Shown: piece by piece, positions 41,499 through 44,592 of the stretch
Numbering within the stretch: the stretch's first letter is position 1
Layout of the letters: each line of letters begins with the position of its first letter
Position numbers and translations under genes: made by a program
NCBI GenBank assembly: GCA_965215515.1
Contig: OZ244057.1
Location: forward strand, 832,001 to 896,000
Origin: Oligoflexales bacterium
GTDB taxonomy: Bacteria > Bdellovibrionota_B > Oligoflexia > Oligoflexales > JAPPIL01
DNA length: 64,000 bases
Direction: 5' to 3'
The notes under the pieces: model-generated
Database searches by the model: none
Seen by the model: only the letters and a program-made list of their open reading frames with translations
What the model was told of the DNA's origin: nothing

Positions 41499-41518
41499 AA
41501 TGATAGTGGGCCTAGCCT
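41499..41518 (+). repeat. Putative crossover site 1, AATGATAGTGGGCCTAGCCT
   Basis: Perfect 20-bp inverted repeat of 42487-42506; 19/20 direct match to 43894-43913. Confidence 0.92.
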
Positions 41519-41725
41519 AAAGTCTACGTCTCTTGTGCCGCAGGTCGACAAGCACCACCAACTGAGATGGAAACAGCAGTAGATGGAAACGTAGAACAGT
41601 GTGATGATAATAATGCTGGTACAGACGGCACTCAGTGTACAATCGTTGCTACCGATAGTGAAAAATGCACTGTGGTGGTTAAAAGCGGAGATGTAAGTGT
41701 CATGAAAAGTTTGGATTTGTCGTAA
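41519..41725 (+). other. Silent C-terminal cassette C (no signal peptide; 68 codons; one base out of frame with the site)
   Basis: Reads KVYVSCAAGRQAPPTEMETAVDGNVEQCDDNNAGTDGTQCTIVATDSEKCTVVVKSGDVSVMKSLDLS*; acidic, Thr/Val-rich, Cys-containing composition like the two lipoproteins. Confidence 0.65.
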
Positions 41726-41739
41726 TTATTGATCTGCGC

Positions 41740-41780
41740 AAAGAAAAGGAGGAGGAGCGCATGCCTCCTCCTCGTGTTTG
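41740..41780. terminator. Intrinsic terminator between convergent cassettes (probably bidirectional)
   Basis: AGGAGGAGG-8 nt-CCTCCTCCT stem with a U-tract on the minus strand. Confidence 0.8.
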
Positions 41781-41792
41781 GCAAGGACTCCC

Positions 41793-42614
41793 CTAACCCG
41801 CTGCTCCAGTTACGTCGATTGTTTCCGTTACTTCACTGCCGCTCTCATCGTTAATTGATGCAGCTACGGTGCAAGTGTACGTTGAGCTGTCTGCTAGTTC
41901 GTTGCTGCTATCATCAAGCGTGATACTAGCGGTGTACTCCCCGTTAGTACCAGTGCCCATGTTTACAACTCCTCCAACTCCTGCATCAATGTTGCTGTTG
42001 TCCACACAAGACCAAGACACACTTAAATCATCACCTTCTATACTCCCTGTAACCATAACCTTGGCCCATACTACTGTTCCTTCAGTGACTGCACCAGCAT
42101 CAGCAGCACGCTCACCACCAATAGCGTCGCTGCCATTGTCGTCGTGGATAGCCAAAGTCAGGGTAGGAGTTCCATCATCCCCGTCGCTCGCAGCCTTAAT
42201 TTCAAACTCAACTTCCTTTGCCTCTATCTTCTCACCGCCGAGGGTGGCTGAGGCATTAGCTGTGCATTCTACCGCAGTGCCGTGATCGCCGAGATCAATG
42301 TCACCAAAATCCGCTTTACCAGCCTTAGCCTTCATCTTTTTTTCAACAGCTTCTTCATCTCCACACGCGACAGTCAGGGTTACTTCAGCAGTTTTGTCAG
42401 CATCAGCATCACTAGCGATGCTGACTGTAATGGCTGCACTTTCACCGCCATCTCCCATGGTGACATCACCGATTGTGCCGATAGCCAGGCTAGGCCCACT
42501 ATCATTAGTTTCTGTCCCTTCTTTGTTGTCATCATCCTCTGTATCACAGCCGCTCAGAGCTACAGCAGCCGCGATGACCCACACCATCCTCAAGAACCAA
42601 ACTCTAAACGACAT
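41793..42614 (-). CDS. Variable surface lipoprotein, constant N-terminus plus cassette A
   Basis: GGAGG SD, lipobox LSGC, acidic beta-rich Cys-paired domains; first 43 aa identical to 43786-44592. Confidence 0.85.
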   Translation of the reverse strand: MSFRVWFLRMVWVIAAAVALSGCDTEDDDNKEGTETNDSGPSLAIGTIGDVTMGDGGESAAITVSIASDADADKTAEVTLTVACGDEEAVEKKMKAKAGKADFGDIDLGDHGTAVECTANASATLGGEKIEAKEVEFEIKAASDGDDGTPTLTLAIHDDNGSDAIGGERAADAGAVTEGTVVWAKVMVTGSIEGDDLSVSWSCVDNSNIDAGVGGVVNMGTGTNGEYTASITLDDSSNELADSSTYTCTVAASINDESGSEVTETIDVTGAAG

Positions 42615-43034
42615 GATCTCTCCTCCGAAAAACAATTGTCTAAAATGTAAACATCATACTGAGTATCTAACCACACAACCGAGCTGCGCGCTACCCCTAT
42701 TCTCTCAAAAAGCGAAAAAAAATCCAACCTTGGGCGCAAAAAATATTTCTAAAATCTTCTTTGTGTCTGCTGAGGGAAGAATTTAAAAAACTGCAAGAGA
42801 ATGGCTGCAAAAACAAAAAACAGACTGCGAATGCCTCCCACTGCGTATGTTTGCATAATCGATAGCAGAGCCCGTCAGTTTGCTGCTCAGATCTTTTTGC
42901 ATGGACAAGATCGCGGTCAGCGGTAATGTAGCGCACCGTGCTGATTGTGAGCGCATCACCACCGAATGTGTGCGGGCGCGTCCGCCGTAAAATTTCACCC
43001 CATCGAGGAACGTGCCCGTGGTCATCCCCGTCGC
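42487..43034 (-). repeat. Long inverted repeat, left arm (glpX 3' end, intergenic region, constant lipoprotein region); includes site 2 at 42487-42506
   Basis: Near-identical reverse complement of 43359-43913 with small indels. Confidence 0.95.
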
Positions 43035-43505
43035 CCGCGCCACGAACGATTGATCGACGAGGTGCGTAAGCGGGGGCGTCGGATTTTTCTGATCGGCGAT
43101 GGTGATACCCATCGTCGCGGGCTACGGGCTTGCCACGGCCAATCCTTGACTCGGACATCGAGCGTCCCTGCTCGGTGTTGGCGGTGCACCTGAGGGTGTG
43201 TTGGCTGCCGCTGCCTTGCGGTGTATGAACGGCGATTTTCAGGGACGCTTGATTTTCGGCAGGAGGAGGAGGAAGCCCGTGCCCGCGACATGGGTATCGC
43301 CGATCCCGCTCGGGTTTACAAAATCGACGAGCTTGCTTCTGGCAACGTTATGTTTTGTGCGACGGGGGTGACCACGGGCACGTTCCTCGATGGGGTGAAA
43401 TTTTACGGCGGACGCGCCCGCACACATTCGGTGGTGATGCGCTCACAATCAGGCACGGTGCGCTACATTACCGCTGAGCACGACTTGACCCGCAAAAAGA
43501 TCTGA
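43021..43505 (+). pseudogene. glpX: Class II fructose-1,6-bisphosphatase 3' fragment, frameshifted, 5' half absent
   Basis: [60 protein letters not shown] spread over different frames. Confidence 0.88.
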
Positions 43506-43913
43506 GCAGCAAACTGACGGGCTCTGCTATCGATTATGCAAACATACGCAGTGGGAGGCATTCGCAGTCTGCCTTTTTGTTTTTGCAGCCATTCTCTTCG
43601 GCACGTTTTTTAAATTCTTCCCTCAGCAGACACAAAGAAGATTTTAGCTCAAATATTTTTTGCGCACCAAGGTTGGATTTTTTTTCGCTTTTTGAGAGAA
43701 TAGGGGTAGCGCGCAGCTCGGTTGTGTGGTTAGATACTCAGTATGATGTTTACATTTTAGACAATTGTTTTTCGGAGGAGAGATCATGTCGTTTAGAGTT
43801 TGGTTCTTGAGGATGGTGTGGGTCATCGCGGCTGCTGTAGCTCTGAGCGGCTGTGATACAGAGGATGATGACAACAAAGAAGGGACAGAAACTAATGACA
43901 GTGGGCCTAGCCT
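43359..43913 (+). repeat. Long inverted repeat, right arm; includes site 3 at 43894-43913
   Basis: Identity with the left arm stops one base after the 20-bp site. Confidence 0.95.
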
Positions 43914-44592
43914 GATGGTCGCTTTTGACCCAGCAACCCCTGAAGCTGGAGCAGAAGCTACAGTCGTAGTAACTGTCAAAGATGGTGAAGCCGATGACAA
44001 GATCAATATCGGCGTTATGTGCGGCAAGAGCGAAACACTGGCCGCGCAAGATTATGAAGTTAAAGACAACAAAGCGACCAGCGCTCAGTTTGGTGTTCCT
44101 GAGGCTGGAGGGGCAAAGATAACCTGCACCGCGACTGCTTCAGGTAAAGTTGGGGATAAAGACCTAAGCGAAGAAAAGTCTTTCGACATCGACGTGGCTG
44201 GCAGCAATGAGGAGGAAGCCGCTGCTCCGACACTACGATTTCAACCTGATTCTACTAGTGAGCTAGATGCATTAGAACCAGGTGCGACTGAAACTCCGGA
44301 GATTAGTGTTGAAATCATCGACGATGCAGGCAGGGTAGATGGTGATAGTACTTTAGATGTGACCCTATCTCTAACCTGCGGTGTAGATGAAATTGACCTC
44401 AACGGCAACAACACCCCTGGCAATGCCGCAATAATAGCAGCGGTGGCGGGTGTGGCAACTTTCCCCCCTATGTCGAACCTGAAGGAATTCACCGCTGGTA
44501 AATGTACTCTGAAGGCCGAAGTCGGCACTGAGGGCCAACCAGATTATCGCGTAAAAGAGTATGAGCTTACCATCGTCGCCCCCACCGCCTAA
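43786..44592 (+). CDS. Variable surface lipoprotein, constant N-terminus plus cassette B
   Basis: Identical MSFRVW..LSGC..NDSGPSL, then a divergent acidic Cys-paired region. Confidence 0.85.
   Translation: MSFRVWFLRMVWVIAAAVALSGCDTEDDDNKEGTETNDSGPSLMVAFDPATPEAGAEATVVVTVKDGEADDKINIGVMCGKSETLAAQDYEVKDNKATSAQFGVPEAGGAKITCTATASGKVGDKDLSEEKSFDIDVAGSNEEEAAAPTLRFQPDSTSELDALEPGATETPEISVEIIDDAGRVDGDSTLDVTLSLTCGVDEIDLNGNNTPGNAAIIAAVAGVATFPPMSNLKEFTAGKCTLKAEVGTEGQPDYRVKEYELTIVAPTA

Follow-up and report, generated by a model that had tools for sequence, protein, structure and literature searches.

Probable switching of a surface lipoprotein between two phases by DNA inversion in an uncultured Oligoflexales bacterium

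In the sap system of Campylobacter fetus, the invertible segment bears a promoter and carries passenger genes; it lies between surface-protein cassettes in opposite orientations that share long homologous 5′ regions, and RecA is involved. In the available parts of the reports on Ureaplasma parvum, the promoter and the 5′ membrane-anchor part of mba/UU376 and UU172 invert at repeats of 21–41 nt, of which one lies inside the ORF, such that the anchor is fused to either of two opposed ORFs by a recombinase encoded elsewhere (PMC3047005, PMC3599477). The Mycoplasma pulmonis vsa and M. agalactiae vpma systems are described in the portions of the sources at hand as one expression site that is recombined by inversion onto silent 3′ lipoprotein genes (PMC4534519, PMC3047005, PMC11868660). 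The R64 pilV shufflon is presented, in the accessible text, with the constant part outside, flipping cassettes, an adjacent rci gene, and sfx sites of 12 + 7 + 12 bp (10.1101/2024.10.25.620183). For Bacteroides fragilis Mpi, the excerpted account is of a serine recombinase that acts in trans on distant invertible regions, with promoters at 13 regions (PMC4747536). A full-text search of non-subscription journals returned no published case of inversion-based surface-protein phase variation in Oligoflexales.

We analysed a locus of an uncultured marine-type Oligoflexales bacterium (genome G000; 2.18 Mb, 94% complete), within a window of 64,000 nucleotides, meaning the whole stretch of DNA that was analysed and to which all positions refer unless stated otherwise. 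We read it as a surface-lipoprotein switch that works by reversible DNA inversion between two phases, with a probability of roughly 0.8. One lipoprotein 5′ end is carried on an invertible segment between opposed 3′ cassettes that have no signal peptide of their own, and the locus is thus of the expression-site inversion type (mba, UU172, vsa). The first-pass annotation had assigned it the layout of the R64 shufflon, which does not fit, as the constant part itself lies on the invertible segment. As far as the sources cited above describe the known systems, the locus resembles mba and UU172 in that the anchor end flips at a short intragenic repeat and the recombinase is not adjacent. It differs from them in that theirs are mollicute protein families, unrelated to the lipoprotein here, in that the Ureaplasma switches are driven by XerC whereas the sole Xer-like protein here is without the catalytic Tyr, and in that a central-metabolism passenger gene, here glpX, was not found described for mba or UU172 in the available parts of those reports. 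With vsa and vpma, as portrayed in the same partial accounts, it shares promoter and N-terminal coding DNA as the moving part, but those systems have many tandem-repeat cassettes and a tyrosine recombinase, in contrast to the diderm bacterium studied here, with its two cassettes that are built of folded Ig-like domains. The in-frame C-terminal swap at a site within the coding sequence is shared with R64, but there Rci acts on sfx sites around cassettes, whereas in our locus it is the constant part that inverts, and the genome search revealed no intact tyrosine recombinase. Mpi differs in having many targets, against one intragenic target here, whose site has no further copies in the genome, and serves as the model for the candidate small serine recombinase discussed below. 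The sap system differs in its long homologous 5′ regions, compared with 34 bp here.

The evidence consists of the contigs of four public runs from a single study, covering at most three samples and two years, with runs X1 and X4 from one shared sample; none of the four is recorded as RNA. In the window, two ORFs have an identical 43-aa start with an LSGC lipobox and diverge after NDSGPSL. The first-pass annotation had taken these for two genes with a shared N-terminus; both ORFs exist in the window, but the constant region is present once in the contigs of each of the four runs. The assembled sequence is a mixture of both orientation states, not two gene copies. The signature of this blend is an inverted repeat that extends about 550 bp into a broken glpX, with indel-containing arms flanking that gene, the 5′ half of glpX absent genome-wide, and a forward glpX remnant (42900–42918, 19/19 identical to glpX of the relative G001) within the reversed arm. 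An inverted duplication giving two real gene copies was ruled out because the middle segment is single-copy in the contigs, and genuine loss of glpX was ruled out because a 1427-nt contig accommodates the entire gene. The locus shows that, in a genome assembled from long reads, a palindrome next to a disrupted housekeeping gene can flag active inversion instead of duplication or gene loss.

The proposed recombination site was a 20-mer, which occurs at 41499 (+), 42487 (−), and 43894 (+, one mismatch), with no further match in the 2.18-Mb genome at up to 4 mismatches (exact matches expected by chance, about 4e-6). The copies at 41499–41518 and 42487–42506 form a perfect inverted pair, as had been noticed. 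The working repeat is longer, however, at 34 bp: an inverted pair at 42486–42519 (−) and 43881–43914 (+), the latter, AGGGACAGAAACTAATGACAGTGGGCCTAGCCTG, encoding GTETNDSGPSL, whereas the 41499 copy has its outer 20 bp alone. Searching the genome with the 34-mer at up to 10 mismatches gave 2 matches; sub-part matches with 2–3 mismatches (genome positions 711487, 1991373, and 1792866) look like chance, and a genome-wide inverted-repeat scan found other repeats, none carrying this site sequence. Junction contigs were recovered in all four runs for the left repeat (42490–42531, and 42490–42519 plus a loose end) and the right repeat (43869–43910, and 43881–43910 plus a loose end). In these contigs, whose simplification is able to mask rare junctions as well as T/C recombinants, cassette A always carries the T marker (42501) and the outer 15 bp of the left repeat, and cassette B always carries the C marker (43899) and outer 15 bp of the right repeat, in 4/4 runs. 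This one-base linkage places the crossover within the inner 18 bp (42502–42519 in the left repeat). The repeat lies inside the coding sequence, and the junctions of the constant end with A and with B agree with open frames.

The invertible segment (42502–43898) is a single contig of 1427 nt at flank depth in 4/4 runs, compared with 1397 bp, chimeric, in the window. Inversion had been predicted for 41499–42506, for which no junction at 41499 is present in the contigs of any run. The segment probably comprises the 18-bp repeat part, about 73 bp of upstream sequence (recovered for 12 letters), glpX (about 951 bp), a 277-bp intergenic region, and the constant 5′ end; the sum 91 + 951 + 385 = 1427 is consistent with an intact glpX. 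Every run yields seven contigs, namely the A flank, the middle, the B flank, and four 42-nt junctions (constant end to A, far end to A, constant end to B, and far end to B). The share of phase A, in which the constant end is joined to A, is 0.45, 0.56, 0.55, and 0.40 by run, and the runs carry different cassette alleles, yet all contain both phases. The earlier proposal that inversion at a short intragenic repeat gives a lipoprotein a different exposed part while its N-terminus stays constant is thereby borne out. The sole constant 5′ end is joined in frame to A (273 aa) or B (268 aa), while the other cassette abuts the opposite end of the segment, on the upstream side of glpX, and would be silent. 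The upstream region, ribosome-binding site, and constant 5′ end occupy 43506–43898 (+) in phase B placement, and the mirror copy at 42502–42900 represents this DNA as it lies in phase A. In the relatives G001 and G002, conservation extends over about 110 bp ahead of the constant-region ATG; a promoter scan gave 4 sites against 2.8 expected, which lends a promoter no support. The 3′ half of glpX, for fructose-1,6-bisphosphatase II (PF03320), lies at 43031–43505 (+); in the assembly, sequence of the opposite phase has taken the place of the 5′ half. The gene is intact in 3/3 relatives, and the single glpX of this genome rides on the flipping segment, where it may be expressed in either phase from its own promoter.

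The constant 5′ end consists of 43 codons for a signal peptide, the lipobox (residues 20–23), and an acidic linker. Cassettes A (41793–42485, −) and B (43915–44592, +) are each about 230 codons long, match contigs without gaps, and are 28% identical in domain 1 and 19% in domain 2. The AlphaFold model for A (pLDDT 71.7) is all-beta, with two Cys-bridged Ig-like domains predicted, and fold searches gave single-domain matches such as 2p9r_B (Z 9.6, rmsd 2.7, 92 aligned). A single-sequence folding (pLDDT 49) was discarded, the ESM Atlas gave leads below 0.9 only, and a Pfam Big_5 match fell below its cut-off. On these models, A and B are the bodies of a bacterial lipoprotein with tandem Ig-like domains, both cassettes having two. 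As both orientations of the segment occur, cells would be able to display either of two very different protein bodies, and variation of this exposed, adhesin-like Ig tandem may serve as a defence against phages or a host. The A/B pair suggests strong diversifying pressure and so offers a handle on what uncultured Oligoflexales bind or evade. A 13-pair hairpin 3′ of B (44599–44629) has its T run on the minus strand only.

At least three cassettes had been proposed, and a search for more had been suggested. A profile search of the genome found A, B, and two stand-alone paralogues, with no further cassettes, and the 20-mer is confined to its three sites. In cassette C (41499–41725, +), the 20 outermost bp of the repeat precede a remnant that is out of frame. 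The acidic, Cys-containing frame described there is real (41516–41725), but it is not the frame of the site, which ends in a stop 20 codons past NDSGPSL, and it has 69 codons compared with about 230 for A or B. It is 23/40 identical to domain 2 of protein P0013 (E 2e-12) and represents a third domain-2 type; the gap-free contig match over 41000–42519 indicates that it is real sequence. C is probably a decayed, internally deleted third cassette, and with A and B alone in frame there are two working cassettes, not three. The terminator that had been placed between C and A is a terminator-like minus-strand hairpin with a T run at 41746–41773, behind A, by consensus match only, in a scan that found 4 such matches against 3.8 expected in shuffles. 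An R64-like shufflon of three cassettes, with 41499–42506 also inverting and C expressed, would account for the perfect 20-bp inverted pair; contigs drop rare variants, and R64 sfx sites tolerate a variable left arm, in the part of the source available (10.1101/2024.10.25.620183). We consider it very unlikely, given that the contig is unbroken across 41000–42519 in 4/4 runs, the 41499 site is without 13 of the 18 inner bases, and a constant–C fusion would be a 63-aa stub because C is out of frame.

In G001 (8922–10683), a 442-bp inverted repeat links the same gene to a copy that has no signal peptide, the two standing head-to-head. In that genome and in the one with P0007 and P0016 the repeats span all of domain 1, and the swap in these and other relatives would be limited to domain 2. 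In G002 there is a single gene, and a search for a silent copy found none. The layouts of P0006–P0018 are inferred from protein sequence and equal-sized contigs only, and alignment A3 contains 17 of 18 hits, with P0008 excluded for an apparently frameshifted tail. A scan of JGI metagenomes for the locus gave 0 loci, and a protein scan of genome contigs confirmed 0 of 466 candidates.

The interior of the window is demonstrably mis-assembled and the library type is absent from the run records, yet that library chimeras or mis-assembly at the repeat produced the whole picture is hardly credible: each of the four junctions is exact to the base, keeps the frame, and has close to half the depth in 4/4 runs from two years, the contigs contain no other joints of this kind, and G001 has a similar head-to-head layout. 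Co-existing lineages could also carry fixed orientations. X1 and X4, from one sample, differ at cassette SNPs (41891 and 44261–2), indicating that lineages do co-exist, and all runs come from one study; a further cassette SNP lies at 42128. Two strains fixed in opposite orientations by one historical inversion, with no ongoing switch, are nevertheless improbable, as both phases occur at 0.40–0.56 in 4/4 runs with differing cassette alleles, and each run has the 1427-nt middle as a single contig without branches.

Flipping is more plausibly ongoing; the enzyme would be a site-specific recombinase that acts in trans and is most likely of the serine class. No recombinase was found adjoining the locus, in agreement with the first-pass annotation. 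The sole PF00589/PF02899 match in the genome is an Xer-like protein 1.14 Mb away in which GLK replaces GLR and the last 60 aa contain no Tyr, as in 4/4 family genomes. It is thus without the catalytic Tyr, and no intact tyrosine recombinase was found in the 94% complete genome, which leaves a short list of candidate enzymes for a defined 34-bp site. IS110/Piv recombinases were found in 0/4 genomes, and neither cumulative GC skew nor a KOPS-like motif marked a terminus clearly enough to look for dif there. A stand-alone gene at G000:559245–559883 encodes a small serine recombinase of 213 aa with a YYRVST motif, whose best PDB match is the DNA invertase Gin (E 2e-14) and which scores 43 bits against the Mpi model (cut-off 272). 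It is our leading, if tentative, candidate for the invertase; a large serine recombinase of integrative elements, of which intact ones are encoded at genome positions 125333–127126 and 1630742–1632550, is a doubtful one, and the odds are about even that RecA or something else does the flipping. Of 41 genomes of the order, 40 have the small serine recombinase and 3 yielded the lipoprotein, indicating that the enzyme has another job; inspection by eye beside its gene in 6 genomes revealed no shared site.

Homologous exchange of the RecA type within the 34-bp repeat, needing no dedicated enzyme and with the even ratio arising from time or balancing selection, is the most serious competitor, though we rate it as rather unlikely. 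A RecA gene is present, no recombinase adjoins the locus, the site is without dyad symmetry, and the domain-1-long repeats of relatives (442 bp in G001) would suit RecA. Against this, the marker never crosses over despite 15 identical bases outside it, the G000 repeat and the silent cassette P0016 share their starting point at the GT codons, and homologous exchange would rarely be frequent over a mismatched repeat of just 34 bp. Returning to the site-specific switch, it is conceivable, though speculative, that the family lost intact Xer and kept the small serine recombinase, which this genus co-opted for a 34-bp, coding-constrained site, dragging the sole glpX along, with variation at two levels: the whole body here, and domain 2 in G001 and others. 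If true, this would be a serine-driven counterpart, in Bdellovibrionota, of the mollicute XerC lipoprotein switches. The locus offers evidence, supported by reads, for surface-protein phase variation by inversion in Oligoflexales, with an unusual anatomy that combines a single glpX on board with no intact tyrosine recombinase found. The best dyad symmetry in the site covers 4–6 of 12 arm positions, no more than chance, and so does not tie it to any particular enzyme. At the centre of the 34-mer is a GA immediately inward of the T/C marker, which would fit the 2-bp core of a serine-invertase site.

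The shared 20-mer of the lipoprotein locus lies at 41499 (+), 42487 (-) and 43894 (+, one mismatch), and a search of the 2.18-Mb genome at up to four mismatches gave no further copies, confirming the three sites of the first-pass annotation. In the window, two lipoprotein ORFs with identical first 43 amino acids lead into the Ig-like cassettes A (41793..42485, - strand) and B (43915..44592, + strand). The repeat joining these ORFs outruns the N-terminus, being perfect for 248 bp and then continuing, with indels, ~550 bp into glpX. This gene is single-copy genome-wide and matches profile positions 162–307 only, and a whole glpX (316–325 aa) was found in three of three relatives. 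At 42900–42918 a forward glpX piece sits within the reversed arm, with 19 of 19 bases equal to glpX of the relative G001. A consensus of two orientations would be expected to look like this, with a truncated glpX and a forward piece in the reversed arm.

The stretch is present in four public runs, from one study with at most three samples and available as contigs only. In each run, seven contigs among the pieces listed represent two flanks, one middle and four junctions. The A-side contig is continuous across 41000–42519, the B-side contig starts at 43881, and the single middle contig (1427 nt, flank-level depth) contains the constant region and glpX once each. The two genes previously annotated with a common N-terminus do share an identical 43-aa start in the window, but the run contigs contain one constant region. 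By our own arithmetic, the 91 bp before the start codon, a 951-bp gene and 385 bp of intergenic plus constant sequence sum to 1427, in agreement with an intact glpX. The four 42-nt junctions, all seen in every run, link the constant end and the far end to A and to B, and the constant-to-A share calculated from junction depths was 0.45, 0.56, 0.55 and 0.40. The window matches the contigs exactly at 42502–42900 and its middle differs by 10 substitutions and 14 gaps; outside this mis-assembled middle, the few differences (three: D242N, D163N and E159V) all lie in A or B and all change residues.

Because the loose ends of the contigs start at 42519 and 43881, the true repeat is 34 bp long (42486–42519 and 43881–43914). 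In each of the four junction types its sole mismatch (T 42501/C 43899) goes with the outer cassette, putting the exchange within the inner 18 bp; this evidence is good but not final, as contig simplification may conceal recombinants. The centre of the 34-mer, just inside the T/C marker, is GA, which would suit the 2-bp core of a serine recombinase, but arm symmetry is at chance level. Most probably, the segment 42502–43898 inverts and takes the lipoprotein upstream region and glpX along, and each cell would then produce either A or B. About 110 bp of the lipoprotein upstream region is conserved in the relatives G001 and G002. As both have a promoter-like TTGAAT-17-TATGCT no more than 60 bp from where glpX begins, the 73 bp ahead of glpX could keep its promoter in both phases.

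No recombinase gene lies beside the locus, as the first-pass annotation had stated. The GLR Arg and the Tyr are catalytic residues of tyrosine recombinases. One gene of this family is encoded in each of the four family genomes (here L020, 2015757–2016659), and since all four Xer-like proteins have GLK or GIK at the XerD GLR position and no Tyr in their last 60 residues, they should be inactive. The catalytic tetrad is named in the accessible text of 10.1101/2024.10.25.620183. The XerD cut-off was reached in none of 41 Oligoflexales genomes, and IS110/Piv was found in none of four. At 559245–559883 of the source contig (L023) lies an intact gene for a stand-alone small serine recombinase, whose nearest PDB entry is a DNA invertase (E 2e-14). 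Such an enzyme is present in 40 of the 41 genomes of the order (best match per genome ~52–81% identical) and is therefore available yet not locus-specific; it may now handle chromosome-dimer resolution in place of Xer. The genome also encodes RecA and several large serine recombinases within integrative-element-like regions, two apparently whole. The serine recombinases and RecA are candidates for the exchange at the 34-bp site. The large serine recombinase genes (contig positions near 3949, 28775, 126000, 152955, 586000, 619500, 1632000 and 1758000; window ~5800–6900) are mostly broken, and some cap related integrative elements with conjugation-like genes.

Homologous exchange could flip the same segment, a reading identical to ours save for the enzyme, and we regard it as possible although doubtful. 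Co-occurring strains, each with a fixed orientation, are improbable as the source of the four junctions; in their favor, runs X1 and X4 derive from one sample and differ in SNPs. The first-pass annotation had proposed inversion between 41499 and 42506 with a working third cassette, C (41499..41725, +). However, the runs have no junction at 41499, and their contigs are unbroken from 41000 to 42519. The 41499 copy retains 5 of the inner 18 bp of the repeat, its reading frame stops 20 codons past NDSGPSL, and the acidic/Cys frame of C (69 codons) is shifted relative to the site. That frame resembles the end of domain 2 in a relative (23/40 identical, E 2e-12), and C is apparently a deleted remnant of a third cassette; a live one is very improbable. 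Least credible of all is an artefact, given both phases in every run.

Segment inversion finds its closest layouts in mollicutes, namely Ureaplasma mba/UU172 (PMC3047005, PMC3599477) and M. pulmonis vsa (PMC4534519), according to the accessible portions of these papers. The same Ureaplasma excerpts attribute inversion to XerC. The R64 shufflon layout suggested earlier fails in three of four features tested against the available text of 10.1101/2024.10.25.620183. Mpi, as excerpted (PMC4747536), provides a precedent for a serine enzyme acting in trans, and invertible regions without a neighboring recombinase are already described in the portion available of PMC9881135. In a literature search whose coverage excluded most subscription journals, neither inversion nor phase variation turned up for Bdellovibrionota or for Oligoflexia.

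A profile search scoring 8000 candidates gave 18 proteins, 5 being the query's own and none named. Of 41 genomes searched, 3 were found to contain the family, and these belong to a single genus. AlphaFold, supplied with an alignment of 17 of the 18, predicted two beta-sandwich domains after a disordered linker (pLDDT 71.7, pTM 0.52). Both resemble generic Ig-like folds: the top Foldseek match is RbmA (E 1e-6, but TM 0.25), and single-domain VIA matches reach Z 9.6 (rmsd 2.7, 92 residues). The predicted domains might be labeled adhesin-like, although sharing a fold says nothing on function. Identity between A and B is 28% for domain 1 and 19% for domain 2. In 4 of 136 pairs domain 1 is 92–100% identical and domain 2 only 23–27%, making the family modular, although the two identities are still weakly correlated across pairs (rho 0.29). 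Stand-alone paralogues without the repeat lie at contig positions 735181 (L011) and 362734 (L040).

In G001, a gene lies head-to-head with a signal-less copy and a perfect 442-bp inverted repeat spans domain 1 (L008:8840–10683), where inversion would exchange domain 2 alone; the signal-less copy ends abruptly at a dispersed repeat element. The relatives' proteins P0007 and signal-less P0016, on equal-sized contigs, have domain 1 in common from the GT codons where the repeat of the source genome begins. P0007/P0016 and P0008/P0018 each pair a full gene with a signal-less copy (domain 1 99% identical, contigs both 2,417,873), and P0008 passes from domain 1 straight into an odd tail, which might reflect a mixed-phase consensus. 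G002 has a single gene, and no silent partner was found there.

Elsewhere on the source contig, inverted repeats of several hundred bases flank a 6–8 kb stretch (236356–244364), which may be a mobile element or a further mixed-phase consensus. Directly past cassette B, window positions 44726–46308 encode a DnaC/IstB-like ATPase that has a Cys cluster at its N-terminus and, after it, a 243-aa protein without a Pfam match. Next come a predicted Cys-rich lipoprotein of 440 aa, also without a Pfam match (46305–47627, -), and an exported 848-aa protein (49515–52061) that carries a metalloprotease-like HEWGH motif and, at its C-terminus, a P-proprotein domain.
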